DNA of 57,382 nucleotides from Kiritimatiellia bacterium (GCA_031550185.1 JAVBOU010000008.1:1-57382); one strand, 5' to 3'; counted from the stretch's first letter, positions 2,890 to 53,560 are shown. Notes: generated from the letters alone by a model not told the origin. Numbers and translations: made by a program.

Positions 2890-5523
2890 TTAGCGGATCA
2901 GAAAGAGTGAGCCGCTGTTTTTGCTGAGCCAGATTTCGGTGTTGTTCTTTACCTTGGCAATATGCCATTTTGCGTGAAGTTCGGGCGGAAGGAGGTAATC
3001 ACCGGTGATGTTGGAGGCGGTCAGCAGATGGCAACGCGTTATCTCCTCTGGGATGTCATCGAGCAAGGTCACGTTTACGGTGCCCACGGCGTTGAACGCG
3101 TTGTCCACAATCAACGGAGCAATGAGTGACGCGGCAAAGCCGGCCTCGTTATCCAACATGACGCTGTTTTTCACGTTGCCGCTGCCGCCAATGAAAGCCT
3201 GCGGGGCGACAGTGACCGCGCTGATGACGACGCCATTGGTCGTCAAAAGAAGGGTGCCTTCTTCGATGGTTGTGTCGCCGGTATAAGTGTTGACACCACC
3301 GAGCATCCAAATGCCGGTTCCTGTTTTCAGCAGCGATGTCGGATAAACGGTGGATTTGTCGATGCGGTTGGGAATGACGCCGAGCACCGCGTTGCCGAGC
3401 GTGTTGGTGCCGGCGAGGGTGAGGGTTTTGGCTCCGTTGACAGTGACGGTGAAATTGGATTCAAAAACAACCGCACCGGATCCAGACGCGTCGAGCGTTG
3501 CGCCGCCCGTGGTTCCGGCCAGGTTGATCACGCGGTCGGTAGATTCGCCGGAGCCGAGATAACGGAGCGTGCCGGTGGTGGTGCTACTACCGATCTCAAT
3601 TGTCCCGTTTGCGACAGTGACAGGGCGTCCAAGGCTGCTTGAACTTCGGGGATTGACGACACGATTCAAAACGTACGCCTCTAAAATGCCGTTGTAAATA
3701 TAGGTTTTCAAGGTGTACGTGCTTTCGTCGCCACGCAGTGTAAAAACGCCGGCTCCTGTTTTGGCAATGCCGCCGTTGTCCGCAATGATGCCGTCAAAGA
3801 TCGAGTTCGAATCCCGATGGCCGATGGTAAACACGCTGCTTCGAAGCAGGAACAGCGTGCCGCCGCCGAACATGGTGTTTACATGATACGCTCCGCTGTG
3901 CGTCTCAATACGCCCGTAGTTGTAGATGTCACCTTCCCGATCTCCATACGGCAACACGTTGCAATTGGCTCCCAAGTCAATGCGTCCGAACAAGTAAATG
4001 TCCCCGGTCACCGTATGGTCGGAGCCTGAGATACCGACGCTTGAGCCTGACGATCCGGTGACTGGAAGCTCTGTGGTCATCTGGTAAAAGACAATACCGC
4101 AATCGCCGCTTATACCCCTGGTGATAGTGCTTCCCTTGCCTCGCCACGACGCAATGACACCTTGCACGCCGGTGAAATCCAACGGCGCGTTGATGGACAT
4201 TGAGGCATTGCTACGTAGCATGACGAGGCCGCTTTTGACATGAAGTTTATTCGTGCTGGTGATGTTGGACACCGAGGCAAGATAGGCTGACATGATGGAG
4301 TTGACAACACCCTCTTCTGTGAATGTCACCGCTGTGCCCGACGGCATGTAGACATTTTCGACGTTTCCCAGCACAGGGCCATTGTAACCATTGGCATAAG
4401 TCCGAAATTCGGTGACGAGATCCAGTGGCCTGACGCCTTTTTCGGTGTCATAGGTGAGGACGAGCGAATTGCCGTCTGTATACATCCAGGGAATGATTTG
4501 TACGGACGGCGTTCCGGGTAGTCCGTTCGCGTCGCCAAACAGCTCCGGTGGATTGTCAATGAAGACATTGCCGACATTGGATGCAGGAGCGTTTCCAAGC
4601 ACCGCGTCATTTCCGCCAACTGCAATTCGCGTGGGCGAAAAATTTTGCCGGGTAATTTCACCAATGGAAAACACGGTTTCACGGTTTGCCTTCGGATAGA
4701 GCAGGAACGAGTTGATGCCGCCCTTTTTGTTTGTGTCGATGACCAGGCTCTCAATCCGGTTTGTGGAGTTTGCCGTCCCGTTGCCGCTCGCTCGCAGAAA
4801 AGCAGTGCGAAGGGCGATGGTGTCCGCGCGGACGGCGCCATTGCCGCGATCGGAGTTGAATTCAACGGAGGTGCGGTTGTCGATGGTTATTTCGGCGTTG
4901 GGTTGCGACATGTCGTTGCCATCAAAATAAAGTGTGCCGCCACCGGTGATCAGCAACGAGTCCATGTTTTGCATGGCGTTGCGGATTCGTATGGTACCGG
5001 TTTCAATGCTGAACGTACGCGGTACGCCACCCAAATCAAGATTCAACGATTGGTTTTCAGTACCCTGATTTCCAATCCAAAACGACCTGTTGACTTTGTT
5101 GGTGATGTTGCCATTCAGCGTTAGCGTCCGGCGCGCGCCACTGCCGCGCAGATAGATGTCACCCGACGCTGTCCCATGCTCAATGGTGATGCCATTCAGG
5201 AAACTCGTGTCCCTTGAGGTGTCAATATACTGCGCACCGCGGACAATCAAGCTTTGGCCCCACAAGCCGTTGATGACTCCGTCCGCCCAGTTGGAGAGAT
5301 CGTTCATGTCGTATGTGCCGGCGGCATCCCGTATCCAGCCGGAGGCAGGAGTGGTGCGCAAGGATGCGGTTGATGTCCAGACCGTCTGTTCGGCGGTTTG
5401 GACGACCGCGCGGACAACATAATCTTTTGAAGGGTCAAGACTGTGCAATGTATATGAAAACACCTTGGGTGACGCCTCGATATTTGACGCGGAAAGAACC
5501 GCGGAATATTCCCATGCGGCCAC
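2890..5523 (-). CDS. PATR beta-helix surface protein, C-terminal part of a gene split by an in-frame TAG at 5530-5532
   Basis: Open frame with PATR-type repeats (LLKTGTGIWMLGGVNTYTGDTTIEEGTLLL) and the conserved C-terminal module ending NNTEIWLSKNSGSLFLIR. It has no signal peptide or plausible native start of its own (tool start is a GTG 6 nt after the TAG). It is in the same frame as 5530..6618. Confidence 0.7.
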   Translation of the reverse strand: MAAWEYSAVLSASNIEASPKVFSYTLHSLDPSKDYVVRAVVQTAEQTVWTSTASLRTTPASGWIRDAAGTYDMNDLSNWADGVINGLWGQSLIVRGAQYIDTSRDTSFLNGITIEHGTASGDIYLRGSGARRTLTLNGNITNKVNRSFWIGNQGTENQSLNLDLGGVPRTFSIETGTIRIRNAMQNMDSLLITGGGTLYFDGNDMSQPNAEITIDNRTSVEFNSDRGNGAVRADTIALRTAFLRASGNGTANSTNRIESLVIDTNKKGGINSFLLYPKANRETVFSIGEITRQNFSPTRIAVGGNDAVLGNAPASNVGNVFIDNPPELFGDANGLPGTPSVQIIPWMYTDGNSLVLTYDTEKGVRPLDLVTEFRTYANGYNGPVLGNVENVYMPSGTAVTFTEEGVVNSIMSAYLASVSNITSTNKLHVKSGLVMLRSNASMSINAPLDFTGVQGVIASWRGKGSTITRGISGDCGIVFYQMTTELPVTGSSGSSVGISGSDHTVTGDIYLFGRIDLGANCNVLPYGDREGDIYNYGRIETHSGAYHVNTMFGGGTLFLLRSSVFTIGHRDSNSIFDGIIADNGGIAKTGAGVFTLRGDESTYTLKTYIYNGILEAYVLNRVVNPRSSSSLGRPVTVANGTIEIGSSTTTGTLRYLGSGESTDRVINLAGTTGGATLDASGSGAVVFESNFTVTVNGAKTLTLAGTNTLGNAVLGVIPNRIDKSTVYPTSLLKTGTGIWMLGGVNTYTGDTTIEEGTLLLTTNGVVISAVTVAPQAFIGGSGNVKNSVMLDNEAGFAASLIAPLIVDNAFNAVGTVNVTLLDDIPEEITRCHLLTASNITGDYLLPPELHAKWHIAKVKNNTEIWLSKNSGSLFLIR

Positions 5524-5529
5524 ATCTTC

Positions 5530-6618
5530 CTAGCCATCCAATGTTCCCCAGCACACCGTCACCGTACCGGCGTCATGACGCAGCATTGGCGCACGTCCGG
5601 TGACAGTCACATTGGCAGGGGAAAAAAGCGTGTTGGCAATGGGATCCAACTCGATAGCCGGAACCGTGGTAAAAGACATTGTGGAAGACCAAGCTTCCTC
5701 TTCGCCCGCCGTCGCCATAACCCAGACAAAATATTCACGGCCGTATTCAATGTTGTCGAACAAACATGAGACATTTGCCGGTTCTCCGGCTGTGCTGATG
5801 ATAGGCTGTGTGGTGAAATATTCCCAGTTTGCGCTGTCTTCGCCCTGATTCGTTGTACCCCAGAAAATCGTTGCCATTCCATCGGCGGGCAAAAGCGCCA
5901 CCTGCGCATTGACAACCGCAACGGAGGGATCCACACGTGTTCCAAGCGGGTAAAGCAAAACCGAAAACTCTTCCACTTCCTCGTTTGTAAACGCGTAGAC
6001 ATGGAGCGGATTGGTGCTGTTTTGGGCGGTGTGCTTCAGCGAGAGTGTGCCATCCGCGCCTGCAATGTAGCGGTATGCGAGGACGCGGTCACTCTTGGCT
6101 CCGTCGCAATTAAAGGTAAATGATTCACTTGTGATTTCATCGCCTCCGTTCGGGCTGGCGACAAAATCCACAAACCTGTTGCCGTTCACGGTCCACACCC
6201 GGTTGTAAAAGCGCGCTTCATAGCAGACGCCGGGCGTGAGTCCTGTAAATTTCATGGTGCCGCTGGATGTCCCGGCGTTGCACGCTTTCAATAACTGATA
6301 CACATCCTCCGCGGCCGGTGTGGCGATGCTGGCGTAAGTGGTTGAGCCATTGTTCATGGTTCCTGGAAGTCCGGAAAAATTGCTTCCGGAAGTTCCGGTT
6401 GTACTCGTGAACTGGACACCGTTAAGAATTGCATTTTGCGTTAAGGTTGAAAAATTGCCCGTCGCAAAATCCAGTGCATGTGTGTAGGTTTTTGTTGACG
6501 TCACACCAGTCTGTGCGTCGCCTTTAAACGCAAAAACCTTGGTGTTGGGTGATGGATTGTCGGCATGTTCCGCCATGACGAAAAACGCTGAAAGGGCGAA
6601 TAGAAGGAGTTTGTTCAT
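5530..6618 (-). CDS. N-terminal part (signal peptide, CBM-like N-domain, Fn3-like units) of the TAG-interrupted giant protein
   Basis: ATG at 6618 preceded by GGAGATCATT. Signal peptide MNKLLLFALSAFFVMAEHA. The N-domain is homologous to the N-termini of 12137..17062 and 39981..43892 (TKTYTHALDF ... HVYAFTNEE). It ends at a TAG inside a conserved Fn3-like unit. Confidence 0.7.
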   Translation of the reverse strand: MNKLLLFALSAFFVMAEHADNPSPNTKVFAFKGDAQTGVTSTKTYTHALDFATGNFSTLTQNAILNGVQFTSTTGTSGSNFSGLPGTMNNGSTTYASIATPAAEDVYQLLKACNAGTSSGTMKFTGLTPGVCYEARFYNRVWTVNGNRFVDFVASPNGGDEITSESFTFNCDGAKSDRVLAYRYIAGADGTLSLKHTAQNSTNPLHVYAFTNEEVEEFSVLLYPLGTRVDPSVAVVNAQVALLPADGMATIFWGTTNQGEDSANWEYFTTQPIISTAGEPANVSCLFDNIEYGREYFVWVMATAGEEEAWSSTMSFTTVPAIELDPIANTLFSPANVTVTGRAPMLRHDAGTVTVCWGTLDG

Positions 6619-6642: not shown

Positions 6643-8196
6643 TTAGCGAACGCGTTCGCTGTCGAATTTTGCGCCGCGCAAGGCGGAGCGGACAAAGGAA
6701 CCCCAATAGGGCGTGGGCGTGAAATTCCAGTCTGAAATGACGCAGGGCGAGGCGTCGATGTGGAAGCTCCAGGCGCTCCAGTTGAGCTTGTATTTTTGGA
6801 TGAAGGCCAGCATGTCGGGCGCCCACTGGTAAGGGTCGACAATGACTTTTTCAAACTCCATCGCCTTGGGCTGGCAGCCGACTTCGCCGACAAAAATGGG
6901 ATGTTTTTCGGCGACGGCCAACACCTTGCCGGCCCAATCCGTCTTCCACGGGTAAATGTGCGTGGCGTACATGATGCCGTTGCCGCCTTTCTCCGTGAGC
7001 GAGAAGCCATTGGCCACGCCGCTCAAGTCATACGCCCAGTCGAGTCCGCCCGCGATGACGATGTTTTTCGCGCCGGTTGCACGGATGACCTCGAGCAATT
7101 TTTGCATGCCGATCGACGCGCCAAGCTCCTTGCCCTCGGTGGTTTCGGCAATGGCGCCGTCGCGTTTTTCACCCGCGAGCTTTCCGCCATCGCGCCACTC
7201 CTCCCACGAGATGTCGTACGGCTCGTTGATCATGTCGAACAGCACCGCGGGATGATTCGCGTAGCGCTTCGCCGCATCGCTCCAAAACGCCGCGTGCTCC
7301 TGCGTTGGCGCGCGGTATTCGTGCAAATCCAGGACGATGTAGCAACCGTGCTTCGCGGCGTACTCAATCATTTCGTCGACCAGTTTGCGGTACGCCTGCG
7401 CGCCGTCCGGCCCCTGCTTTGGATCGCGGCCAAACCAGAAGCGCGTTTTCACCGCGAAACGAATCACGTTCACATTCCAGTCCTGCAACGCCGCGGCGAA
7501 CGACTCGCGCAAGTGATCGCCCTCGTGCCACCACTCCAGGCTCGGAATGTTCACGCCCTGCAGCCACTCCTCGCGTCCGGCCTGGTCAACAATCCGGTTG
7601 CCCTTCACGACGAGCGTCGCCTCCGGTCCCAGCGGCTTCACGTCCGCGCGCACCGGATCGACGCCGGCGAGTGACACGTCGTCAATGTCAAACGTGCCGC
7701 TTGCCGTGTTGAAATGCGTGGGCATGAACTCCAGGCTCACTGCGTCCGCCGGAACCCCGAACTTGTGCGCGATCCAGCGCCAGTCCGACGTCCCCGTAAA
7801 ACCCACGGGTGGCGCACCGGTTTTTTTGCCGTCCTGGTCGATGAAGTTCATGATGATCCGCGCGTCGTTCCACTTCTCTTTGCCGTGCTGGACATTTTCA
7901 TAACGCGTGCGAAACTTCAATTCCAGATTCTCAAAACCCTTTGGCACGTCGACTTTCACGTAAAAGAAATTCACCATCTCGTCCGCGCCCCGCGACGTCA
8001 ACCGTAGAAAGTGATTGCCATTTTCCGCGGCATACTCCGCGTCGCCAGCCGGCCAATGCTTCGGCCAGTTGTTTTCAGATTCCTCAAAGTCTCCATTTTG
8101 AAAAATCGAAACCGGAATCGGAGTTGTCAGCGGAACCGCCGCGTGCAGAACAGTTGCGGTAAACGCGCAGGCAAAAAAAGTGTGTGCGTGCATCAT
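6643..8196 (-). CDS. secreted CBM4_9-like + GH5 glycoside hydrolase (cellulase superfamily)
   Basis: Start is the ATG at 8196, overlapping the upstream stop as ATGA. Signal peptide [19 protein letters not shown]. CBM-type opening [11 protein letters not shown]. GH5 motifs LDLHEY, MINEPY (acid/base Glu) and FVGEVGCQP (nucleophile Glu). Confidence 0.85.
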   Translation of the reverse strand: [517 protein letters not shown]

Positions 8197-9314
8197 GAGG
8201 TTTTCTTTCGTAATTCGTCGACAGGCGCGAGCGCGAGATCGACGCGGTTGTGGACGGTTGTGGTGTAACAGATGTAACGATCGTCGCAGCAAAATTGAGG
8301 ATGCGGATGGAGATGTCCGCATTGCGTCAGGCGACGATCAAGCGGCGGGTGGTTGACGATCTCAACCTCTTTGCCAGTGCGCAGGTTGCGAAAAATCACG
8401 CGGCAATCCGGGGCGTGCGGATGCCCCATCGCGTCGGCCACGAGCAGGCTGCCGTCGCACGACGAATGGGCGTGCGCAAGGTGGCCGGGCCAGAGATTTT
8501 CGTCGCGACCTGTGGCCACGTCGACACGCTTGACACCCACGCCGTAGTGAACATACCACACATGTTTCCCGTCCGCGTCCCACCACTCATGGCCGCTGTG
8601 CGAAACCGGCGCGGGGAGAATGGGGCGCGCTGTTTCGCCGCGGCGGATGATCCACAGCCGGTGATACGGACGCGCTTCGGGTTCAAAAGGTTCGTCGATA
8701 TGCTCCTGCCAAAATTCGTGCGCAAACATCATCACGCCGGGTTCGGTCGGACTGGTCAGCGCGTGGTCATAATAACGGTTAAACGTTTGCCAAACGCGCG
8801 CGGGACCGCCGTCGATCGGCATGTCACCGAGGAACATCTCTTCGCCGAAGATGGCGTCGAAGTTGATCGACTTGCGGTTCGCGGTGAAATTCGGATGCGT
8901 GGCCATGCGGAGCGGCGCGCGGCGTTTGGCCTGCTCCGCCAGGAAGGAATTGACTTTTCGCGGTTCCGCGCCGGGTTGTGGTCCGCACGCCCAAAGGTCG
9001 AGATTGTTAAACCAATAAATGTCGCCATTTTCCTCGTCCACGAACGGCGTGTGCGAAGGCTGTATGTCCAGCCGCACGCGAAACTCATCGCGTGCCAAAT
9101 CGACGACGCCCATGATGTAGACGGAGTTTGTCCCGCCCTTGGGAGGAAACATGCAAATGACCCAAAGCCATTGCCCGTCGCGCGTCATCGAGCGGTTGGT
9201 GTAATAGAAATGTTTCTGAACCGGCGCAAGGCGTTCGGTGAGAATGAAACTTTGCGCGCCGCTGACGGGATTTGTCCAAGGCGTGAAAAGGCGTGATGTG
9301 GCGGGTGTGTGCAT
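8193..9314 (-). CDS. oligogalacturonate lyase-like protein (PL22 family), no signal peptide
   Basis: 373 aa. Blocks KHFYYTNRSMTRDGQW, SGHEWWDADGKHVWYVHY, HAHSSCDGSLLVADA and HPHPQFCCDDRYICYTT parallel the conserved blocks of enterobacterial Ogl as I recall them (RNYFYQKCFTQDGKK, THEFWVPDGSALVYVSY, SHLMSNYDGTLMVGDG, HPHPSFTPDDKQVLFTSD). Confidence 0.7.
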   Translation of the reverse strand: MHTPATSRLFTPWTNPVSGAQSFILTERLAPVQKHFYYTNRSMTRDGQWLWVICMFPPKGGTNSVYIMGVVDLARDEFRVRLDIQPSHTPFVDEENGDIYWFNNLDLWACGPQPGAEPRKVNSFLAEQAKRRAPLRMATHPNFTANRKSINFDAIFGEEMFLGDMPIDGGPARVWQTFNRYYDHALTSPTEPGVMMFAHEFWQEHIDEPFEPEARPYHRLWIIRRGETARPILPAPVSHSGHEWWDADGKHVWYVHYGVGVKRVDVATGRDENLWPGHLAHAHSSCDGSLLVADAMGHPHAPDCRVIFRNLRTGKEVEIVNHPPLDRRLTQCGHLHPHPQFCCDDRYICYTTTVHNRVDLALAPVDELRKKTS

Positions 9315-9330: not shown

Positions 9331-11982
9331 TTATTTCAGAAGCAGGAGCGTGTTGGTGATTTTTCCAGCACGAAGTTGGGTGTTGTTTTTTGTTTTGTAA
9401 ACGCGCCAACCCTTCGCGCCTGCCGTGGAAAAGTCGCCGGTGATGTCGACGGCGGTCGCGAGGAGATAATTGGTGATTCGCTCTTCCGGCGGCAACGACA
9501 GAAGATCGGGCGGCACGAGTGTCACTTCCGTTGTACCGGCGCCGGTGATCGTGCCAGTGACCGCCATGAAGTCCGGCGCAGCTTTGGACAGATCAAAAAT
9601 CATCTTCGCGCCGTTGGCAAGCGCGAGATTGTTTTCAAGCCTGAACCCGCGCGGATGCAGTGTTGCACTGGTCGCAATGTTGAGCGGGGCCTTGATTTGT
9701 CCGCGCACCGCGAGCGTTCCGGCGCGCACTTCGGAGGCAAGCGTGAAGGAGTTGGTGGGCGCGGAGAGCAACAGCGTGCCGAGGCCGGTTTTGACGAATC
9801 CACCGGGCGTGTTGGAGTCGAGGTCGGCCATTTCAAGCTGAATGGCCACGTCGTCCGCAGCCGCGCCGTCGCCAATGTTAAACGTGCGGAGTCCGGCGAG
9901 GCACATCGCGCCGGGAATGCTGGCGCCGGAAGATGCGACGGTTGCGGGGTTGTCGTTGACGTTGTTGCCGACGAAATAAAAATCGCCGAGCAGACTCATG
10001 TAGCCGATCATTTGGCGGTAGGCCGAGGAGCCGATGCTGATCGGCGCGTAGGCGCGGGCGGTGGGCGTGTTGGTGATGATGATGTCGCCGCCCGCGACCC
10101 AAATGGCGCCGGGTGTGAAACCGGGAGCGTCGTTGCTTCCGGAGAGCGTGACCCTGCCGCCGGAGAAGACCACCTGGCCGCTCGTCGTGCTGCGGCGTTT
10201 CGTCGGGATTTCCCACACGCCGCCGGCGAGAAAGGCGTTGCGGACATACGTGTTGGCGAAGTTGCCGAACGACGTGCCGTCCTGGAATGTGCCGCCGGTC
10301 ATGTAAAGATCGCGGAAGGTTTCGTTGGAGCCGTAATCGCTCAGGTTTTCGCGCTGGGCATAAATGCCGGCGTTGATGTGGACATCAGAGGTGTCGGGAA
10401 TCTGGTTGCCGGGGTTGAGCAGCGTGCCGCCGTTGACGACGAGGTCGCCGGGAACGGCAGAGTTGGGCACGGGCGAGTTGAGCCAGAGCACGCCGGCGTT
10501 CACGCGTGTGGGGCCGGTGTAGCCGTGCAACGGGGAGGCGAGCCGCGCGGTCCTGTTGTTGAGGCCGACAAAAGTGACGCCCTTGCCTGCGTCGTTGGTG
10601 ATGCACGTGGCAAAGGTCAGCGGCGCGCCCTCCAATCCCTTGTTGGTGGCGGTCAGACTGAAATAAAAGATGCCCTCGTTTTCGTTGAGGTCGAGGAACG
10701 CGGGCGCGATGATGGCGCGCGCGTCGTTATGCGTCCCGCCTGCACTGGTCATGTGGAGGTTGTGTAGCGCGCCGCTCGCAAGCGTCAAGGTCGAGCCGCC
10801 GGTGATTTCAAAGCCGGAGGAGAGCGTGGACGAAACCAGCATCAGCGAATTGACCGTTGTCGGCTGCGTCAACACGATCGCGCGCGGCGCGTCGTCCGCG
10901 TTGACGAGGCGCACGTTGTCGAGCGTATTTTGCCCGTCCGTCAACGCGTCGGCGTATTCGTCCGCCAACAACAGACGCACGCCGTATGTCGCGTCATACG
11001 TGGCGAACATCGTGCCGACGTCCGTGATATTGGTGTTGCCAACCATAAACGGCCAAATGGACTGCGTCGTGGAGCCAGGCGCGCCGGCGCCGCCGGCAAG
11101 CGGTGGAACCGTGTCAAATGCGAGATGCGACGTCTTAAAGGAAGCCTCTGTTGAGTCCAGTGGAATCACGCCGAGATTGATGCCGCGCGCAAGCAGCGTT
11201 GCGCCGACCGCGCGTTCGAACACAGGCGCGGTCAGGCGTTTGTTGACGGCGTTGTGCGTGTTGATGCTGATTTGCGAATGTCCCTGGCCGATGGCAAACA
11301 TTTCGGCGATCACGTCATTTTCCCACCGGTTGCTGTCGCCGGTAAGCTGCGCGGAGCCCGGCAAAAGAAAAAGATTTTTGGCCCGCGGCGTGCCTGCGGA
11401 CGGAACGCCCAAATTGATGTAAAAGTTACATCCGGCGTACATCCGCACATCCGCCTCCGAGGCATGCGTCCCACCGTAGAGCTCCAGTCCGGGGCCTTCC
11501 AAAACCGTAATGACGCCAGTGCCGAGAAACGAGCCTTTTGCCTGTTTTGTTCCGCCGCCAGCGAGCGTCAGATTGTGCCCGTTCAGATTCACGGACGGGG
11601 GAGTCAAAATTCCGCTGCGGATGTCCCACACCTGCGGACACGCGAGGGAAATCATTGTGCTCGAACTCCATGTGAAATAAATGTTACCTGTGGAAATCAT
11701 GCCCGCGCTGCCGAGCTCCAGTGTGCCGGAGTTAAATGTCTGGTGGGCGGTCGATTCCGAATGCACACCACGCCACTGCTGCACGCCGAGCGTGTATGTC
11801 CCGCCTGATTGCGGCGGAAAATACGCGATGTCATTGGGCCCCGGCACAACGCCGCCAATCCAGCTGGACGGCTGGTCGAGCGCGTCCGCGTTCGAGACAT
11901 CCTTGGTGATGACCGCGGCTGTCGCCGTGCCGCCAATCGCCGACGCCAGCAACAGCGTCGCCCGAAATATGAAGTTTCTCAT
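9331..11982 (-). CDS. large secreted PATR (autotransporter-associated beta-strand repeat) beta-helix protein with LLLLK tail
   Basis: Start trimmed to the ATG at 11982 (MRNFIFRATLLLASAIGGTATAA signal peptide). N-terminal W-x-GG-x-x-P motif (SSWIGGVVPGPNDIAYF). PATR repeats (FVKTGLGTLLLSAPTNSFTLASEVRAGTLAV). Ends KITNTLLLLK. Confidence 0.85.
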   Translation of the reverse strand: MRNFIFRATLLLASAIGGTATAAVITKDVSNADALDQPSSWIGGVVPGPNDIAYFPPQSGGTYTLGVQQWRGVHSESTAHQTFNSGTLELGSAGMISTGNIYFTWSSSTMISLACPQVWDIRSGILTPPSVNLNGHNLTLAGGGTKQAKGSFLGTGVITVLEGPGLELYGGTHASEADVRMYAGCNFYINLGVPSAGTPRAKNLFLLPGSAQLTGDSNRWENDVIAEMFAIGQGHSQISINTHNAVNKRLTAPVFERAVGATLLARGINLGVIPLDSTEASFKTSHLAFDTVPPLAGGAGAPGSTTQSIWPFMVGNTNITDVGTMFATYDATYGVRLLLADEYADALTDGQNTLDNVRLVNADDAPRAIVLTQPTTVNSLMLVSSTLSSGFEITGGSTLTLASGALHNLHMTSAGGTHNDARAIIAPAFLDLNENEGIFYFSLTATNKGLEGAPLTFATCITNDAGKGVTFVGLNNRTARLASPLHGYTGPTRVNAGVLWLNSPVPNSAVPGDLVVNGGTLLNPGNQIPDTSDVHINAGIYAQRENLSDYGSNETFRDLYMTGGTFQDGTSFGNFANTYVRNAFLAGGVWEIPTKRRSTTSGQVVFSGGRVTLSGSNDAPGFTPGAIWVAGGDIIITNTPTARAYAPISIGSSAYRQMIGYMSLLGDFYFVGNNVNDNPATVASSGASIPGAMCLAGLRTFNIGDGAAADDVAIQLEMADLDSNTPGGFVKTGLGTLLLSAPTNSFTLASEVRAGTLAVRGQIKAPLNIATSATLHPRGFRLENNLALANGAKMIFDLSKAAPDFMAVTGTITGAGTTEVTLVPPDLLSLPPEERITNYLLATAVDITGDFSTAGAKGWRVYKTKNNTQLRAGKITNTLLLLK

Positions 11983-12093
11983 GTGCATTCTCCTTGTGTG
12001 ATTGTGCAATGGCGCGAAGCGGTTATTTTGTGTTATGCGCTCCGCCGATGATAGTCAGCATTATACGTCGCATGTTGAGGATGTGCAATTTGA

Positions 12094-12136: not shown

Positions 12137-15100
12137 TCACCGGATCATGAAAAGCCCGGCGGCCATAGTGTGAAGGCCAGTGAGGCGGATTTGTTTATTC
12201 TCGGCGTCGAGCGTGATTTTGGCGTCGTCAGCGTAGATGTAACGCCGGGAGTCGGGATGGATCACGGGAACGAGGTTCACAGTGCTCTCAATGTTTTCGA
12301 GGTTGCCCGTCCAATCCATCAGCACGTAGGTCTTTCCACCGACGGCTTTTCTGCCGCGCGAAAGGTCTTTGATGACAAACGTCCATGTGTTGCCGGCGTA
12401 GGGTTTGCGCAGGCTGTTGGCGATGTGGACGCGGTCGTTGTTGGCGCCGTTGATCTTGATGTCGAAGAACAAGTCCTCGAGGAGAGCGGTGTTTTCGTTG
12501 TGGCCGAAGGCGCCGCCAAAGGTGAGCGTGCCGATGGTGGCGGCATCGCCGGGCGCGACACGACTGCCGGACTTCAAGTTGGTTCCGTTCATGCTCCAAT
12601 AGCTGAATGTGCCGAATCCGCCGAGGGTCATGCCGGGTTCCGTGACGGTGGGGAAGCCGCTGTACGTGACGCCTTCGGCGACGCTGAGATTGCCACCCGA
12701 GCCGCAGAGATAGACGCCAAATGTATTGGCCGCGCCGATCATCACGGTGCCCTCGTAGAGGATCACGCTACCGCCGCGTGTGCGGGCGGGGCCGTTGAGA
12801 CGAAGCGTGCCGGAACCGTATTTGTACAGGTTGAAAGCGCCCGCAAACGGACCGTGGAAGGTGCGGTTGGAGGAACCGTCGAAGATGACCGCCGGAGCGC
12901 CGCCATTCCACACTGGGAAACAGGTGAGCGCCTCGTAGTCGCCGATGCGGTCTTCGCCGGTGAAACGGAGGTCGCCGCTGTTGTTCAAACGGGGGATGAT
13001 GATGCTCGGACGCGCGGGGGCGCCGGGATTGGACGGACTCCACGCGACAGGCGCGGCGATGTCGAGCGCGTGGCCGCCGTTGTCGCAATGGATGACGATG
13101 TCGTCGCCGCCGAAAACGAGCGCGCCGCCGCCGGTGGATTCGATGCGTTTTTCAGAGTCGCCGCACGCGATCATCGCGCCGGAGGCGATGGTGAAGTCAT
13201 GCGCGCCGAGGTCGAGCGTTTGAAGATTGGCGGTGTTCAGGCGGAGGCCGGCCACGGTGGCGGACGTGGTGAGCGTGAGTTCGGGTTGCGTCAACTGCCC
13301 GAGCGCATCCGGCGCGTTGCCGGTGGCGGCGAGCTCTGTGTAGTCGTTGTCGTTGACGGTGGTGATGAAACCCTCGCTGTCAACGGTGGTGTAATGGTTG
13401 TAGAACATCATCCACGGCTGCCAGATGGGGCCGTACTGATTGTGCGCATCGCGAACGGAAAAGCGGGCGTTGTGGTTGAACGTAAGCGTGACGCACGCGC
13501 CGGCATCGCGCCGGATCTCATCGAAGTGAAGCGTCGTCAGGGGGCCGGCGTTCACGCCGTTGACCGTCATGTTCAAACGGCCGCCCTGGAGATCAAGCAA
13601 CGAAATATCCTCGCGTACCGGGACGTCGCTGTTGCCGTGATAGGTGAAGCTGCCGCTGCCGTGATGCACGCCGAGGGTGACGCCGGGGGCGAAGCGGTTG
13701 CTGCGCGGCGTGCTGTTGTAGAGGTTCAGCGTGGTTTCGGATCCATTGTGATACGCCCATCCGGCGATATAGACGCCGGCGGAGTTGGTGATGGAAAAGT
13801 CGTTGTCAAGCGCGGTACTCATGTTTTGAATGTAGAGATTGCCGGTGGTGTTCCACGGGCCGCGCAGATTGGCGTTATTGTTTTGGTTGCCGGTGGTGTA
13901 GATGGTGGCACCGATGTCGTAATCGGAGACCGGGCCGCTGACGGTGATTGATCCGCCCCATGAGTCGTTCGACTGCCAGTTGGACGAACGTCCGAGAAAG
14001 AGAGGCACGGTGATGATGTGGCCGTTGCCGCCGCCAATGTAGCTGTTGAGCAACGTGAGCGAGGCGTCGTCGGCGTTGGGCGCGAGGGCGGTGTTGGCGT
14101 CAAACACGAGGTCGCCGATGACAAACGGCCCGTCCACAAAAATAACACGCGCCTCTTCGGACAAATTGGCAGTCGTGATGCGAACGCGGTTGTACGGCCC
14201 GGGAATGGCGCCGGTGTCCCAGTTGAGCGGATTGCCCCACCGTTGGTCGCCGCCATTGCCCGTCCACGTCACGGTGCCGTTCGGCAAGCCGTGGGCGGCG
14301 ATGGTGACGGCTTTCGCGGGCGTCTCGACCATGCGGATGACGCCGGGCGCATCGGGCATTTCCGTCTCCGCGCGGAACGCGAAGTAGTGCGTCGTGCCAT
14401 TTGCAAGTTTGTTGATGATGTGCGCGAAATGCGTAACGGTGTTCACGGCGGGCCACGTCCTCACCGGTGCGAGCGAGTCGGCGGATCCGCCCAACAAAAG
14501 CGTCACCGTGGAGGTTCCCGCGCCGGCATCGGCAAGGCTCGCGCTGAAGTAGCAACTTTCCGAATACGGCACCGTGAGCAGGTCGGCGAATGATGGCAAA
14601 CCGGTGGTTATGAAGTTAACCGACGCGGGCGCCCACGCGGTTTCCATTCCGTTGTTGATGCGGTGGCGGTAATAGTAGGTTGTCGCGTTCTTAAGGCCGG
14701 TGAGCGCGTGCGATACATTGCCGAGCACCTGTGCGCCGAGGCTGACGGAATGTTCCCACGCCGCCGCGTTGTCCCCTCCGTCGGTCTCGCCCCAGAACAT
14801 ATCCACCGTGGCGCCGGTGGTGACGCCGGGCGCGATGTAGTCCACCCAGGCCATGGCCGTTGCGGCGGCGCTTGTGATGTTTTCGGCGGCGCGCGAATAG
14901 ATCGCCGGCGACGTGCTTCGCGTTGTGAACGTGCGGGACGCGGAGGCAACAAGGTTGAAGCTGTTGTCGAGCACAAAACGGTACGCGTACGTCGCCCCGA
15001 TCGCCAGCGAACCCGTCGGGAGCGTGACGGAAAACGCGCCGTCTTCGGTGAGTACGCCCTCGACCGCGTACGTGGCAACGCCCGAGCTCTGCCACGAGGC

Positions 15101-17100: not shown

Positions 17101-17128
17101 GCGTGGCAGAGGTCGGTCTCTGCCACGC
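17101..17128. repeat. GC-rich palindromic element, copy 3
   Basis: GCGTGGCAGAG-GTCGGT-CTCTGCCACGC. It lies 13 nt after the stop at 17142 and 38 nt before the start at 17062. Identical 28/28 to copy 4. Confidence 0.9.
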
Positions 17129-20561: not shown

Positions 20562-20578
20562 GACGATTCTCCTTAATG

Positions 20579-22789: not shown

Positions 22790-22861
22790 GGGGTCGTCTT
22801 TCAAAGGAAAGTTGTTGTTTCAAATTGTCATCTTTGACCATGCGCGGCAAAGGATGGGGGT

Positions 22862-22889
22862 GCGTGGCAGAGCCCGGCCTCTGCCACGC
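22862..22889. repeat. GC-rich palindromic element, copy 5
   Basis: GCGTGGCAGAG-CCCGGC-CTCTGCCACGC, 7 nt after the stop at 22897. Confidence 0.9.
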
Positions 22890-35400: not shown

Positions 35401-35428
35401 GCGTGGCAGAGGTGGGGCTCTGCCACAC
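35401..35428. repeat. GC-rich palindromic element, copy 8
   Basis: GCGTGGCAGAG-GTGGGG-CTCTGCCACAC (one arm mismatch), 31 nt upstream of the start at 35369. Confidence 0.85.
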
Positions 35429-38198: not shown

Positions 38199-38268
38199 CT
38201 GATTTTTCCTTAGTTGCGTATCCTTTGGATCGGACACAATGTTTGTGTTGTTGTTGATTTTACATGTT

Positions 38269-38296
38269 GCGTGGCAGAGGTGGGGCTCTGCCACGC
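38269..38296. repeat. GC-rich palindromic element, copy 9
   Basis: GCGTGGCAGAG-GTGGGG-CTCTGCCACGC, 9 nt after the GH5 stop at 38306. It has the same loop as copy 8. Confidence 0.9.
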
Positions 38297-38305
38297 GGAA
38301 GTTTT

Positions 38306-39958: not shown

Positions 39959-39980
39959 GGGTGGTGTGTTCCTTTCGGGG

Positions 39981-43959: not shown

Positions 43960-44973
43960 TCAGCGGTTTTTTTTCATTTCAAATTGCGCGCCTTTCAACG
44001 CGCGCAGAACGGGTTCGCCCCAGTAGGGTGTGGGCGTGAAATTCCAGTCGGCAAGCAGGCAGGGCGAGTGGCGCGGGTGGAAGCACCAGGCGGTCCAGTT
44101 GAGGCGGTATTTTTGAATGCAACCGATCATGTCCGGCGCCCAGGTCTCGGGCGCTTCGTGGCGTTCGGGCGGAAGGAACGGCATGGGATCGGGCTGGCAA
44201 CCGACTTCGCCGACCAGCAACGGGTATTTCGCGGCGGCGTTGATAAAACACTCCTGCCAACCGCTTTTCCACGGATAGACGTGCGTTTCGTACATGATGC
44301 CGAGACCTTCGGGCACATCGACCAGCGCATGGCCGTTCAAGATGCCGCTCAAATCATACGCCCAGTCCAATCCGCCCGCACTGATCAAATTCATCGCGCC
44401 GGTCTTGCGGATCGCCTCCACCAGCGGTTGAAATCCGACGGAGCGAAACGCGACAACCGGCTCGGTGTTCTCGGCAAAAACACCGTCCTTTTGCTTTGGG
44501 TCGTCCGTAACATCGCCGCCGTTTCGCCATACCTCCCATGAAATCGTATGCGCCTCATTCAAGAGGCCGAAGATCACGCCTGGATGATTCTTGTAGCGCA
44601 CCGCCGCGTCCTGCCAAAACCGCACATGCTGCTCCGAAACCGCGCGGTACTCATGCAAGTCCAGCACCACATAAACCCCGCGCGCCTGGCACGTTGTGAT
44701 CACGTCATCCACGCGCTTCCGGTACGCCGCCGCGTCCTCCGCCAGCCAGAACTTCGAATGCACCGCCAGCCGGATGATCCGCACGCCCCACACATGAATC
44801 GCCTGGTGAACGGTTTCGGGAATGTAATTTCCTTCCGGCCAACACTCCAGCGACGAAATCGACACGCCTTGCAGCCACACCTCGCGTCCGCTTTCCTTCT
44901 CCACCAGACGGTTCCCGCGCACCGTCAAAAACGGCGTCCACGCATGGGCGTTTTTCGGAATTTCAAGCGTCAT
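43960..44973 (-). CDS. GH5 glycoside hydrolase paralogue lacking signal peptide and CBM
   Basis: Start set to the ATG at 44973, overlapping the regulator stop as ATGA. It starts [27 protein letters not shown], directly at the point where the catalytic domain begins in the paralogues. Motifs LDLHEY, LLNEAH and LVGEVGCQP. Confidence 0.8.
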   Translation of the reverse strand: [337 protein letters not shown]

Positions 44974-46076
44974 ATTGTCTTCCTTGCCTTTGCCAGCGAA
45001 CCACGTTCGATCAACTCCACCGGCAACGCGTGATGCCCCTGCGCCGCACCCTCCGCGCCAGTCAACTGCGCCTCCAGCAACCGCACCGCCGTGGCGCCGA
45101 TCTCCGCAAACGGCTGCCGCACCGTCGTCAACCCCGGCGTCAGCCACTCCGCCATCGGGTCGTCGTCAAACCCCACCACACCCACATCCTCCGGAATCAG
45201 CAACCCCCGTTCCCCGCAAAACCGGTAGCACATCCGCGCCACCGCGTCACAACTGCAAAACACCGCCGTCGGCCTTCCCCGGCCCGTCAGCAACCCCTCG
45301 CAAGCCTCCCGCACCGCTTCCCCCCAATCCGCAAACGGATCCTCCACCACAATGTCCCGCACCAAACTTCGCGGCAACGCCACCCCAAACTCCGCCAGCC
45401 CGTCCCGAAATCCCGCCAGCCGGTCCGCCACCGTCGACGACGCCGTATCCCCGATAAACCCCACCCGCTCGTGGCCCAGCTCGCCCATCCGCGTCCCCGT
45501 CAAAAACCCGCCCCGGTAATTGTCCGCCGCCACCGACGTCATCCCCGCCTCCTCCCCGCAATGCGCGTCCACCATCACAAACGCAAACCCCTCCGCCCTC
45601 AACCGCGCCACCGCCGCCCGGAATCCCGCCGTGTGCAACGCCACAATCACCGCCCCGCGCGCGCCGTTCTCCGTCAGCCTCCCCACGCTCTCCATGTCCT
45701 CCGTCACATCCCCGTGCGCGTCGCACACCTGCACCTCATACCCCCGTTCCCGCGCCACCTGTTGCGCGCCCCGCACGATCCGTATCGACGGTTCCCACGC
45801 CAGATTTCCCACCATGATCTTCAACATCCCCGCCGTCCTCGACTTCTCCCGCACATACAAACCCTTCCCCGGCCTGCGCTCCAGCAACCCCTCCGCCACC
45901 AGCAACTCCGTCGCCTTCCGCACCGTCACCCGCGCCAGACCATGCTGCCGCGACAGCTCATGCTCCGACGCCACCCGCTCCCCCGGCGCATAATGTCCCT
46001 TCGCGATTGACGCCTTCAACTTCAACGCCAGTGTTCGATAAACCGGAGAACCGGTGTGCATACCAGTACTATTCAT
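44970..46076 (-). CDS. AraR-like transcriptional regulator (GntR-type wHTH N-terminus + LacI/GalR-type sugar-binding domain)
   Basis: The N-terminus PVYRTLALKLKASIAKGHYAPGERVASEHELSRQHGLARVTVRKATELLVAEGLLERRPGKGLYV is a GntR-type HTH. The remainder (KIMVGNLAWEPSIRIVRGAQQVARERGYEVQVCDAHGD ... VGFDD) is a periplasmic-binding-protein-like LacI effector domain. The start is ambiguous among ATGs at 46136, 46076 and 46061. Confidence 0.8.
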   Translation of the reverse strand: MNSTGMHTGSPVYRTLALKLKASIAKGHYAPGERVASEHELSRQHGLARVTVRKATELLVAEGLLERRPGKGLYVREKSRTAGMLKIMVGNLAWEPSIRIVRGAQQVARERGYEVQVCDAHGDVTEDMESVGRLTENGARGAVIVALHTAGFRAAVARLRAEGFAFVMVDAHCGEEAGMTSVAADNYRGGFLTGTRMGELGHERVGFIGDTASSTVADRLAGFRDGLAEFGVALPRSLVRDIVVEDPFADWGEAVREACEGLLTGRGRPTAVFCSCDAVARMCYRFCGERGLLIPEDVGVVGFDDDPMAEWLTPGLTTVRQPFAEIGATAVRLLEAQLTGAEGAAQGHHALPVELIERGSLAKARKTI

Positions 46077-46186
46077 GCTTCCAAAATACCACGACAATCC
46101 GTTTCCTGTCAACCTATGAATACCGCACACCGGCATTAGAGAAGTTGTGTTATAAGTTTGGTAAATCGTCGCGTATAGAACGCTCC

Positions 46187-50628: not shown

Positions 50629-50686
50629 ATGGTGTGTTTTTTCAAAAACTTGCCGCTAAAAAACAGCGGCGCCAAGGAGAAAAACC

Positions 50687-53560
50687 ATGGCCAAATATTT
50701 GACCAGTTTCGCCGTCATCATGGCGGTTATTGCGGGAACATCCGCATGGGCGCAGAACGCGCCGGTGACTATAGAGGCGGCAGTTACACGTATTCAAAAA
50801 AGCTCGGGTGAACATGCCCAGTTTGTCCTGAGGCGCGCGGAAATCGACGCGGACAGTGCGTGGATCGTTTTATATGAGATGAGCGGCACGGCCGTGAACG
50901 GTGTGGATTATGAGACGCTTGGCGGCACGGCCACGTTTGCGGTGAATGAAACATCCGTCAGTGTGGAGCTGATTCCGAAAGGCGAATTAAAGATTACGGA
51001 TCTAAACGTGGTGCTGACCGTAACCACGGTGAACGGCGTGCTAATGGACGCCCCGAAGCCATCCGCAAGCATTACCATCGCGCAGGAGACGAATGGATTG
51101 CGCCTGCGGATTTACAACAGTTACACCGGAAATGGCGACTTGTCTGACTTGTTAGCGCGCGCGCCGTACTCGACGCATTTGTTCCAGGGCCAGGTGTGGT
51201 TTGGCAATGATTTTGGATGGGGCCCCGTTTACAGGGGCGGGCCGATCGGCACGGAGAACTTCGCGATGCTGTGGGACGGTTTTGTGTGGCTGGACGCGGA
51301 TGAGACATACACGTTTGCGACGCACTGCGACGACCGCTCGCTCATCATGATCGACACCGGACGCGATGGGTTTGGCGACGATGACGTCGTGGTGGCACGC
51401 GGATCAACCCACGCCACGTGGAATTTCGGCCTGGCGAGTGTCCCGGAAAGCGGTTATTACCCGATTGCCATTTCGTTTGTGCAATGGGGTGGCGGTTATT
51501 TTTTCTTCACCCGCTGGGACAAAGGGAACAAAGTCGGCCATGACTTCTGGAACGCATTTGCTTACACGGTTGACACATCCATCGCGACCGCCGGCGGGCT
51601 TCCGATGTTTGAGCGCTCGGGTGCGCGGCCGGGGGCGAGCTGGTTCAGCGAACCCGCGTCGGTGAAGGCGGAGACCACGGGCATTTCGATCGCCTCGACG
51701 CTGGGACATGCGGCGGACCATCCAAAAGTGTCAGTTGTATGGGGCGCGGAACCGGGCGTTTACACGTCGACCAACAGCGTGACGGGCGGGTTTGCCAGCG
51801 GCGTCCCGTTCAGCATCACGATGTCCGAGGCGAATCCCGGCACGTACGCGTACCGCATGTTTGTGGAGGACAACGGCGTGCTGTCGCAAGCCGCGGTCAA
51901 CGGCGATCCGGGCTTTCACGTGGGGCCGCTGGCTTTTTCAACGCTTTCCAACGCGTGGGAAAAGGGCGAGATCCCGGGCGCGTTTGAGGTGCGCCGCACT
52001 GGCGCGTCCAGCCTGCCGCTGCGCGTGAATTGCACACTCTCCGGCACGGCGGAGCGCGGCGTGGACTATGTGGCCGCCGGCTTTTCAGGATTTGTCACGA
52101 TTCCGGCGGGCGAGACGGCGCTCGTGCTGCCCATCGCGCCCATCCGCAATTTTTCCAAGCTGGACGACACGGAGGTGGTCCTCACGCTGGCCGCGGGCGC
52201 GTATGTCACGAACACGCCGTCGCGTTCCACTTCGCTGGTGATTCACAATGAGGATTTGCCGGAGTCCGTGGAAGGCGAAATCCTGTGGCTTGGCCGGGTT
52301 TCAAACAACGCGTCGGAGCGCGCGAACTGGCTGGAGAACCGTCTGCCGCTTGAGACGGACACCATTGTGCTTGACGCGACCGGCACCGGCGACCTCGTCT
52401 GGGATTACGATGGGGAAAACGGTTTGCCCGCAACAGTCGCAAATTGGCGGCAAGAGGTCGACTTCACGGGCACGGTGCAATTCAACACCACCTACGGCGC
52501 GGCGTTTCCCGTGTTTACCATCACGGGCAACGCGGTTCTTGAAGGCGGCACTTGGACGCATCGCGCAAATTCCAACCTTTCCGTGTATTGGTTAAAAATT
52601 GACATTTTGGGTGATTTCACGCTGGGAAGCGGCGCATCCGTCAACGTGCAACACAAAGGATTTGCCAGATGGAATGGCCCGGGTGGATTGTGGCATATCG
52701 GCTACGAAGAATTCGGCATCTCGCACGCCGGACAGGGTAGCTGGTATCGCGTTCGCGGAAACCCCAACACATACGGCTCCGCGTTGAATCCGATGGATCT
52801 TGGTTCCGGCGCAAAAAATCACGAGGGTCCGGGCGCGATCTTTCTGCATGTGGGCGGCACGGCACTGCTCAACGGCACACTCTACGCCAACGCGCATGAC
52901 TACGAAGTCGATGACGGCGGCGCCTCCGGTGGCAGCATCAACCTGCGTGCCACGGAGATTCATCCGGCATCCACGGGACTTCTTACGGCCAACGGCGGCG
53001 GCAGCCACTGGCGCGGTGCGGGTGGCGGCGGGCGCATCGCGATCCAAAGCGGCAACGCGATTCCCCAAGGGTTGCGCTTCTCCGCACGCGGCAATTTCCA
53101 ATGGGATAACGCCTCCTCCGCCGCTGGTACGATTTACCGCGTGACTCCGTTTGAAAACCGGCTCATCGTGGACAACCAGAACATTGATACGTACTGGGGC
53201 GTACAATCTCAACGCACCGACCTCCCGGCCAAGTTGAAGCGCACCGACTCGCCCCTGCAAATATTGGGTGAGGACGCGTCCAGCGACTTTGGGCGCACCG
53301 ACGTGTCACTGGCGCCCGGCGGACACGTCACGTTGCAGTATGACTTTAAGTGCGCGTCATTTACCGTAGCGGGGTGGAATTCCTCCGTGGATCTCAACGG
53401 CAAGAAACTTCTTGTGCAGTCCTTTACCGATGCCTCCGGGACGTTTACAAAATCCGCCGACACGTACGAGCACAACGCCTCCGGCCGCTTCAACGGCGTC
53501 AACTTTAACAATGGCAAACTCGTCATTGTCAACCCGGCAACACGATTCATTTTGAAATGA
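50687..53560 (+). CDS. large secreted Calx-beta / PA14-like / Gly-rich beta-helix protein with RFILK tail
   Basis: Signal peptide MAKYLTSFAVIMAVIAGTSAWA. Calx-beta-like segments (YEMSGTAVNGVDYETLGGTATFAVNETSVSVELIP; CTLSGTAERGVDYVAAGFSGFVTIPAGETALVLPI). PA14-like segment (FAMLWDGFVWLDADETYTFATHCDDRSLIMID). Ends NNGKLVIVNPATRFILK. Confidence 0.8.
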   Translation: MAKYLTSFAVIMAVIAGTSAWAQNAPVTIEAAVTRIQKSSGEHAQFVLRRAEIDADSAWIVLYEMSGTAVNGVDYETLGGTATFAVNETSVSVELIPKGELKITDLNVVLTVTTVNGVLMDAPKPSASITIAQETNGLRLRIYNSYTGNGDLSDLLARAPYSTHLFQGQVWFGNDFGWGPVYRGGPIGTENFAMLWDGFVWLDADETYTFATHCDDRSLIMIDTGRDGFGDDDVVVARGSTHATWNFGLASVPESGYYPIAISFVQWGGGYFFFTRWDKGNKVGHDFWNAFAYTVDTSIATAGGLPMFERSGARPGASWFSEPASVKAETTGISIASTLGHAADHPKVSVVWGAEPGVYTSTNSVTGGFASGVPFSITMSEANPGTYAYRMFVEDNGVLSQAAVNGDPGFHVGPLAFSTLSNAWEKGEIPGAFEVRRTGASSLPLRVNCTLSGTAERGVDYVAAGFSGFVTIPAGETALVLPIAPIRNFSKLDDTEVVLTLAAGAYVTNTPSRSTSLVIHNEDLPESVEGEILWLGRVSNNASERANWLENRLPLETDTIVLDATGTGDLVWDYDGENGLPATVANWRQEVDFTGTVQFNTTYGAAFPVFTITGNAVLEGGTWTHRANSNLSVYWLKIDILGDFTLGSGASVNVQHKGFARWNGPGGLWHIGYEEFGISHAGQGSWYRVRGNPNTYGSALNPMDLGSGAKNHEGPGAIFLHVGGTALLNGTLYANAHDYEVDDGGASGGSINLRATEIHPASTGLLTANGGGSHWRGAGGGGRIAIQSGNAIPQGLRFSARGNFQWDNASSAAGTIYRVTPFENRLIVDNQNIDTYWGVQSQRTDLPAKLKRTDSPLQILGEDASSDFGRTDVSLAPGGHVTLQYDFKCASFTVAGWNSSVDLNGKKLLVQSFTDASGTFTKSADTYEHNASGRFNGVNFNNGKLVIVNPATRFILK

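Follow-up and report, generated by a model that had tools for sequence, protein, structure and literature searches.

The window analyzed here, a stretch of 57,382 nucleotides from a Kiritimatiellia bacterium (GCA_031550185.1 JAVBOU010000008.1:1-57382), encodes ten large proteins that end in the same very short C-terminal tail, which an earlier note on this DNA had proposed as a candidate sorting or anchoring tag that could not be assigned to a described system. Scans with models of known sorting signals, the predicted fold, the specificity and modularity of the tail, and its position relative to the C termini of homologues all support that proposal. We estimate at roughly 55% the probability that the tail forms the core of a C-terminal label of about 10 residues, which would be read in trans to route proteins to the cell surface or tether them there. 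What appears new, judging from the literature and model searches given below, is a C-terminal tag related to PEP-CTERM without the membrane helix of all described tags in that class.

Ten proteins of the window share a C-terminal tail

Translation of the open reading frames (ORFs) reproduced, letter for letter, the ten C termini listed in the earlier note, and the pattern [STG][LR][FL][LMFI][ILV][RK]-stop that had been derived from them fits 10/10. The genes, with the two parts of an interrupted one given separately, are listed below; proteins are named after the first coordinate of their gene.

2890-5523, minus strand: C-terminal part (877 residues) of an interrupted tail protein; tail GSLFLIR encoded at 2893-2913; PATR at residues 731-759
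5530-6618, minus strand: N-terminal part of the interrupted gene; signal peptide and a domain common to the 12137 and 39981 proteins
9331-11988, minus strand: family A PATR beta-helix, about 885 residues; tail NTLLLLK encoded at 9334-9354
12137-17062, minus strand: 1641 residues, FN3/PhoD_N-like repeats; tail AGLFMIR encoded at 12140-12160
17142-20582, minus strand: DUF2341, LamG and PATR domains; tail RSLFMVR encoded at 17145-17165
22897-25101, minus strand: 734 residues, C-terminal region common to the 39981 protein; tail RSLFFLR encoded at 22900-22920
26893-29547, minus strand: family A, 884 residues, used for structure prediction; last seven residues encoded at 26896-26916
32655-35369, minus strand: family A; tail GSLLLIR encoded at 32658-32678
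35532-38198, minus strand: family A; tail STLLLVR after KPP, encoded at 35535-35555
39981-43892, minus strand: 1303 residues; tail PTLFILK after KPQ (P-Q-P-T-L), encoded at 39984-40004
50687-53560, plus strand: 957 residues, Calx-beta-like N terminus, without PATR; tail ATRFILK encoded at 53537-53557

PATR (TIGR02601) repeats were found in seven of the ten proteins, and the 50687 protein indeed lies on the opposite (plus) strand and has none, as had been described. Signal peptides, which had been attributed to all ten, are clear and of the Sec type on nine once the real starts are considered, but the 2890-5523 product has none of its own. Several mechanical ORF starts were too far upstream; signal peptides start at about 11988, 20582, 35369, 38198 and 43892. 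Between 5530-6618 and 2890-5523, which are in the same frame, the sole in-frame stop is a TAG at 5527-5529 (minus strand, within the gap 5524-5529; …CWGTLDG*EDVAAWEYS…), indicating that the two form one interrupted gene. The TAG may reflect a pseudogene, a sequencing error or read-through. The 5530-6618 product is 34 to 38% identical to the N termini of the 12137 and 39981 proteins.

The codons used for the tail vary among the ten genes (CTC, CTT, CTA, CTG, TTG and TTA for Leu; CGC, CGG and CGT for Arg; TCA, TCC, TCT and AGC for Ser), showing that the likeness is maintained in the peptide sequence and was not produced by recent copying of DNA. Recent gene conversion as its source was rejected on the basis of this diversity. 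The ten genes end with TAA (eight) or TGA (two), and no transmembrane-like or basic continuation was present 3' of any of these stops in any downstream frame. A hidden PEP-CTERM reached by read-through or frameshifting was therefore also rejected, no membrane-spanning continuation being encoded in any frame.

The conserved unit is longer than a hexapeptide and has a fixed register

A logo of 74 non-redundant tails gave the consensus [KR]-x-x-[GA]-[TS]-Φ-Φ-Φ-Φ-[RK]-COOH, where Φ is a hydrophobic residue. Counted from the C terminus, the positions are occupied as follows.

-10: K (27), R (8)
-9 and -8: P enriched
-7: G (41), A (14)
-6: T (52), S (9)
-5: L, V, T (T in 10/74)
-4: I, L, F, V
-3: L, I, F
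-2: I, V, L
-1: R (38), K (12), Q (9), Y (6); R or K in 50/74, otherwise Q, Y, N, H, F or L

Positions -5 to -2 are nearly exclusively L, I, V, F or M, and among the 74 tails the register is fixed from the C terminus, no residue ever being found beyond position -1. The hexapeptide first noticed is thus real, but the conserved unit is longer and includes a basic residue at -10, G or A at -7, and T or S at -6. The peptide sequence of the tail is conserved although the proteins that carry it share only 27 to 49% identity. Orthologues P0002 to P0009 (31 to 47% identity) all end in [ST]Φ4[RK]; homologues of the 12137 protein end in GGVFMVR (P0285) and GGMIMVR (P0286), and GSLFIVR is a further ending among 12137/39981-family homologues from other samples. 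In the 50687 family, the endings ATLLIIR, GSLLLLR, ATTVIMR, GTVITIR, GTVITIY and, for L018_1502, ATVIVVR were found.

The terminal basic residue, observed in 10/10 tails of the window, turned out to be lineage specific, as sister genomes end in Y or F, Q, or L. Endings in R or K were found in loci L087 (3/3 R or K), L081 (3/3 R), L082 (K and R) and L018 (R and K). By contrast, all four tails of L003 end in Y or F (ATILVY, AQILIY, TRIQLF and TRLFLY), those of L083 are GTLISIL and GTVISFQ, and those of L006 end in H and Q. The endings are uniform within a genome and differ between genomes, which is the pattern that co-evolution with one reader per genome would yield.

Specificity of the tail and its spread over protein families

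The sequences sampled consisted of 80 loci from the Planctomycetes-Verrucomicrobia-Chlamydiae (PVC) superphylum, collected by alignment of the neighboring glycoside hydrolase family 5 (GH5) gene, and of seven contigs collected via homologues. This GH5-based sampling is biased towards GH5 contexts; the alignment of full-length tail proteins has no conserved stretch. ORFs were called mechanically, yielding 27 in the window and about 860 across all sampled sequence. A strict motif, [LIVFMT][LIVFM]3[RK]$, was present in 9/27 window ORFs, the tenth tail being ATRFILK, and in 24 of the approximately 860 ORFs, all 24 of which are large exported proteins of the beta-helix or adhesin type or fragments thereof. 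It was found in 0/615 ORFs from 61 loci of Verrucomicrobia, Planctomycetes and other non-Kiritimatiellia PVC bacteria. Among the called ORFs of the window and the loci, cytoplasmic and unrelated proteins did not carry the tail. The carbohydrate-active enzymes of the window (six GH5 proteins, GH28, GH42, GH127, GH29, GH43 and a pectate-lyase-fold protein) lack it, as had been noted, and so do its housekeeping genes.

After removal of the last 12 residues, BLASTP sorted the tail proteins into the groups 2890/9331/26893/32655/35532, 22897/39981, 12137, 17142 and 50687, with no matches between groups in the C-terminal region; by this measure there are at least four to five C-terminal-region groups. 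Tails also occur on homologues of 1250 to 2200 residues with other architectures. In one protein, P0011, the sequence …TNGTLILIS is internal and is followed by about 30 low-complexity residues.

The tail takes the place of PEP-CTERM or of an autotransporter barrel

The window proteins align over 500 to 900 residues with short-tail proteins from metagenome-assembled genomes (MAGs) labelled Kiritimatiellae or Lentisphaerae (L002, L003, L059, L062, L079 and others). The alignments are just as good with PEP-CTERM proteins that adjoin the same GH5 gene (L011, L020, L022, L033, L039 and L069) and whose hosts are Opitutaceae, Terrimicrobiaceae, Verrucomicrobiia and Phycisphaerae; for instance, the C terminus of P0010, a homologue of 31% identity, reads …LQLTYVVPEPASIAALLGMCASCMLIRPRRRA. 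A profile search was run over 1.8 billion representative proteins and the best 156 sequences were sorted by regular expression and inspection. Of these 156, about 49 carry the tail and about 49 a PEP-CTERM, and about 36 have an autotransporter-type …x[FW] ending; PF03797 was confirmed in 5/5 tested homologues of the last kind. A last folded strand, (G/N)(N/D)xΦxΦxΦ, is common to the homologues and is followed either by VPEP… or by a K/P-rich linker and the tail. The tail starts exactly where homologues from Verrucomicrobia and Planctomycetes start their PEP-CTERM and where others carry an autotransporter barrel. At the level of loci the two signals exclude each other, with 11 loci carrying tails, 15 carrying PEP-CTERM and none carrying both.

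The sequence that succeeds PEP in 62 PEP-CTERM homologues reads [S23 A14 G13][T33 S13][Y/L/W] A L L and matches tail positions -7, -6, -5 and onward. In addition, about 10/74 tails have P-x-P or PP just ahead of [GAS][TS] (KPMPATILVY, RPDPATLIFAR, KPQPTLFILK and KPPSTLLLVR). The shared [GAS][TS]-hydrophobic opening and these proline remnants suggest to us that the tail is a PEP-CTERM of which only four hydrophobic residues and one basic residue are left. On the strength of these alignments, the tail is the positional counterpart of PEP-CTERM and probably a shrunken derivative of it. No recognizable exosortase gene was encoded in the sampled loci, which are loci and not whole genomes.

The same resemblance could mean that the tail is a vestigial stub: exosortase would have been lost and the helix trimmed, freeing the proteins from the inner membrane and leaving at most a non-specific sticky end for the outer membrane or lipopolysaccharide, with no machinery. 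The likeness to the start of the PEP-CTERM hydrophobic segment, the P-x-P relics in some tails, the mutual exclusion by locus, and the lack of a nearby partner gene in the examined loci all fit this idea. However, decay of a remnant would be expected to leave ends of varying length and composition, whereas the tail keeps its register, exactly four hydrophobic residues, a G/A-T/S pair in about 75 to 80% of cases and a defined terminal residue, and it does so across 27 to 49% identity and across families. Moreover, nonsense truncation cannot give a terminal Arg or Lys after four hydrophobic residues in every gene, and the consistent endings within a genome suggest a specific reader. We thus consider a stub improbable.

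The tail differs from known C-terminal sorting signals

We scanned the last 60 residues of seven tail proteins, as well as whole proteins, against Pfam and NCBIfam. None of the existing sorting models in Pfam or in NCBIfam release 20.0 matched the last 60 residues at E≤10. The PEP-CTERM controls P0010 and P0163 scored 18.8 and 29.5 bits on TIGR02595 (cutoff, 16) and matched PF07589 too; a PEP-CTERM control sequence also weakly touched MYXO-, VPLPA- and Heimdall-CTERM. The absence of an LPXTG or PEP motif, stated in the earlier note, was borne out, with no match to LPXTG, GlyGly-, MYXO-, PGF- or VPLPA-CTERM at the same threshold. Its statement that the proteins have no type IX secretion system (T9SS) C-terminal domain also held, TIGR04183 and related models being unmatched by whole proteins and by the last 60 residues. 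The same is true of the autotransporter barrel, since PF03797 and outer membrane protein (OMP) models were absent from all ten proteins. The T9SS C-terminal domain, LPXTG, GlyGly-, MYXO- and PGF-CTERM were accordingly rejected as identities of the tail.

PEP-CTERM is characterized by a near-invariant Pro-Glu-Pro, a transmembrane helix of about 14 residues and about five basic residues (Haft et al. 2006, PMC1569441). The tail resembles it in lying at the extreme C terminus of signal-peptide-bearing proteins with little similarity to characterized ones and in occurring in many copies per genome (ten members in 57 kb here). The two further share the start point after the last strand, the [GAS][TS]-hydrophobic opening, the basic end, the occurrence in the PVC superphylum and, judging by the two membranes of Kiritimatiella, a host with an outer membrane. 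In contrast, none of the ten window tails contains PEP, while P-E-P is present in 59/62 PEP-CTERM homologues; the hydrophobic stretch comprises four residues (five counting Thr) and no membrane helix; a single terminal basic residue, or none in some lineages, replaces the five; and neither TIGR02595 nor PF07589 is matched. Without a membrane anchor, dependence of the tail on an exosortase is mechanistically unlikely. LPXTG and the GlyGly-, MYXO-, PGF- and VPLPA-CTERM signals are likewise C-terminal, multicopy and found on exported surface proteins, and combine a small polar motif, hydrophobic residues and basic residues; unlike the tail, they have a full transmembrane helix and a signature motif and are processed by an intramembrane or membrane-bound enzyme.

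T9SS C-terminal domains end in a short hydrophobic strand and a terminal Lys (…VK in RgpB), and their last residues are needed for export. The ΦΦΦΦ[RK]-COOH of the tail resembles this ending, but the signal of the T9SS spans about 80 residues and folds into an Ig-like domain, whereas the tail lies outside the predicted fold. To our knowledge, the T9SS has been described in Bacteroidota and related bacteria of the Fibrobacteres-Chlorobi-Bacteroidetes group and not in PVC bacteria. With classical (type Va) autotransporters, the tail proteins share a passenger-like body, PATR repeats and a beta-helix, and true autotransporters are found among their profile homologues. About 10 flexible residues, however, replace a barrel domain of about 250 to 300 residues, so that a tail protein cannot export or anchor itself through a barrel of its own.

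In its shortness, its strict C-terminal register and its plausible binding as an added beta-strand, the tail is comparable to the OMP beta-signal, the YxF peptide recognized by DegS/PDZ, peroxisomal targeting signal 1 and KDEL. A related explanation is that the tail is an OMP-type beta-signal for the barrel assembly machinery or the translocation and assembly module (BAM/TAM), or a processing signal for a periplasmic PDZ protease of the Prc/CtpA/DegS type, serving outer membrane hand-over, trimming or degradation. The extreme C-terminal position and strand-like hydrophobic pattern speak for it, as do the aromatic (Y or F) ends of some lineages (ATILVY, AQILIY, TRIQLF and GTVIMLF) and the …x[FW] ends of true autotransporter homologues. 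Yet the ten proteins have no barrel of which the tail could be the last strand, their predicted fold being a beta-helix ending in a small sandwich; most tails end in Arg, Lys or Gln instead of an aromatic residue; and the hydrophobic residues are consecutive, not alternating. PDZ-type readers, for their part, usually require a hydrophobic last residue. We hold this explanation to be quite improbable, more so than a stub.

An Lpp-like link between a C-terminal Lys and peptidoglycan was rejected, since Arg, Gln or Tyr is the last residue of most tails. In L087, three tail genes in a row are followed, about 4 kb further downstream, by a LysM and YkuD (L,D-transpeptidase) gene (15604-16674), a proximity that had prompted this idea but is probably coincidental. 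For Kiritimatiellota, Lentisphaerae and PATR proteins, a full-text search of the literature brought up no account of a tail of this kind.

The tail lies outside the predicted fold

The 26893 protein was modelled twice with AlphaFold2, using 12 and 37 sequences, and the models reached mean predicted local distance difference test (pLDDT) values of 83.8 and 88.8, respectively. Both consist of a long beta-helix that ends in a small sandwich, and in both the last strand is formed by residues 870 to 875 (TELWLL). The linker and tail, KNTSTLFLIR, correspond to residues 875 to 884; residues 876 to 884 are coil in both models, the last four with pLDDT values of 45 to 53. The best PDB matches of the modelled beta-helix were the autotransporter passengers Hbp, SepA, pertactin and Ag43, with low global TM-scores.

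These models bear on the question of whether the tail is simply the last strand of a known fold, a structural or assembly element that would either cap the beta-helix as an edge strand or be donated to one another or to partners, such as the neighboring GH5, to form surface arrays. Several features agree with such a role. The face formed by T at -6 and the hydrophobic residues at -4 and -2 is the most conserved, and position -3 may be S, K or Q (GTLISVY, GTIIKVF and PTRIQLF), as expected for one-sided packing; the layout, with the tail following a conserved strand (…NNTELWL…) and a short turn, is hairpin-like; and the order of GH5 followed by tail protein is conserved. On the other hand, the tail is unpacked and of low confidence in the two models, outside the predicted fold in each, and PEP-CTERM homologues share the last strand yet do without an extra one. 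Together, these two observations argue against a purely structural strand. Furthermore, the linker is variable in length and often Pro-rich, the pairing with GH5 is likewise seen in lineages with PEP-CTERM in place of the tail, and the tail is common to C-terminal regions without detectable similarity. A structural strand therefore seems unlikely to us, although less so than either a stub or a beta-signal.

A proposed label read in trans

If the tail is indeed the core of a label, it would form a flexible extension beyond the final beta-strand of passenger-like beta-helix proteins that are exported by Sec and encoded in polysaccharide-utilization operons of Kiritimatiellia. Its descent may be pictured as a PEP-CTERM that lost the PEP motif and whose membrane helix shrank to four residues. 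Since four hydrophobic residues cannot span a membrane, and since the register is set from the free carboxylate and the endings are genome specific, we favor binding in trans by a dedicated reader; the label would add a beta-strand to a lineage-specific receptor in the periplasm or outer membrane, and this receptor would direct the protein to the cell surface or hold it in place there. The inner membrane would be crossed via Sec and the outer membrane probably via a type II system. Kiritimatiella is enclosed by two membranes and has genes for Sec, Tat and type II secretion (PMC5148204), making the latter the likeliest outer membrane route. At the surface, the tagged proteins would act beside the co-encoded GH5 enzymes.

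More tentatively, and with somewhat less than even odds, we propose that Kiritimatiellia and bacteria represented by Lentisphaerae-labelled MAGs possess an undescribed sorting or tethering pathway that reads a 7- to 10-residue [KR]xx[GA][TS]ΦΦΦΦ[RK]-COOH. This pathway would be derived from PEP-CTERM and would have replaced the exosortase route, with a reader co-evolving with the different endings (…[RK], …[YF] and …IS[FV][QY]).

Several points weigh against a label read in trans. The AlphaFold predictions are of a single chain with shallow alignments, so that packing of the strand only in the native protein, an oligomer or a complex with a partner could be missed. The argument from genome-specific endings loses weight because the paralogues of one contig are not independent of each other. 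The families may all be distantly related beta-helices, the notion of unrelated carriers having been derived only from BLAST. One close homologue, P0015 of the 50687 family, ends in …GGTIVVVDFWE without a tail, which could mean either that this protein is truncated or that the tail is not essential. Both P0015 and P0011, mentioned above, may result from frameshifts or assembly errors or may be genuine variants in which the tail is lacking or internal. Finally, no candidate receptor, protease or transferase was found, and no conserved candidate gene adjoins the tail proteins in the examined loci.

Abundant in guts, sediments and oceans and for the most part uncultured, Kiritimatiellia degrade complex and sulfated polysaccharides. 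If the label is real, this lineage would have its first known sorting tag that can do without a membrane anchor, one that marks the surface proteins of polysaccharide-utilization operons. A short, searchable C-terminal label would make whole surface proteomes predictable from MAGs and would give a starting point in the search for its reading machinery. It would also imply that a tripartite PEP-CTERM can evolve into a helix-free tag, which bears on the mechanism of exosortases, and might serve as a minimal display tag.

Gene context of the tail proteins

The window has a GC content of about 60% and comes from a Kiritimatiellia bacterium; the closest relatives of the window are from Kiritimatiellia MAGs. 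It contains a cluster of regulator, GH5 and other carbohydrate-active enzyme genes interleaved with those of beta-helix passenger-like proteins. The run on the minus strand, headed by the regulator and extending down to 2890, has GH5 (six copies), GH28 and GH42 alternating with tail proteins; around the tenth tail protein (50687) lie GH127, GH29, the pectate-lyase-fold protein and GH43. The regulator and the five GH5 paralogues (of six) that were aligned are located as follows.

44970-46136, minus strand: GntR/periplasmic-binding-protein (PBP)-type regulator, heading the long gene run
6643-8322: GH5
25173-26882: GH5
29586-31328: GH5
38306-40120: GH5
43960-45147: GH5

The cassette consisting of a GntR/PBP regulator, GH5 and a beta-helix tail protein, in this order, recurs in L081, L082, L085, L086, L003, L062, L068 and L070; in L085 and L086 it is directly followed by an ATP-binding cassette sugar importer (substrate-binding protein, two permeases and a MalK-like ATPase). 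In Verrucomicrobia and Phycisphaerae, the same GH5 pairs with PEP-CTERM versions of the beta-helix protein. This gene order suggests that the cassette is a Kiritimatiellia-style polysaccharide-utilization locus with the tagged protein as its putative surface component.

The five aligned GH5 paralogues are 47 to 68% identical and have a common N-terminal beta-sandwich-like domain of about 200 residues. Their C terminus is nearly invariant, DW(N/D)(Y/F)TPTPYWGEPV…KGEKFEMKKMR, and is kept across PVC phyla too.

A palindromic element in the intergenic gaps

A GC-rich palindrome, GTGGCAGAG-N6-CTCTGCCAC, is present in five exact copies in the window, where none is expected by chance, and a longer variant reads GTGGCGTGGCAGAG.CTCTGCCACGCCAC. 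Copies and variants lie at the following positions.

17103-17126: exact copy
20597-20620: exact copy
22864-22887: exact copy
35403-35426: exact copy
38271-38294: exact copy
near 2858, 12100, 43934, 48743 and 57236: variants
near 26747, 31178 and 39892: variants inside the signal-peptide coding regions of GH5 genes

The element is sited in short intergenic gaps, 10 to 20 nucleotides past the stops of several tail genes and 15 to 45 nucleotides ahead of the next start. As RNA, it would form a hairpin of -22.7 kcal/mol (z = -7.4) with no U-run after it; the hairpin has no match in Rfam, and an Rfam scan of the window gave none either. It could be an operator of the GntR/PBP regulator, an element resembling repetitive extragenic palindromes or an mRNA-stabilizing or -processing hairpin.

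Two overlaps between mechanical ORFs (20561-20831 with 20579-22804, and 38198-38309 with 38306-40120) have two causes: the GH42 frame reads across the palindromic element, and the ORFs called for tail genes begin upstream of the real starts. Actual gene boundaries are tighter than the mechanical ORF list implies. When translated, the palindrome yields a recurrent pseudo-peptide, VAE..LCHA, and three GH5 signal peptides contain the palindrome-encoded sequence VAWQGLCHA.

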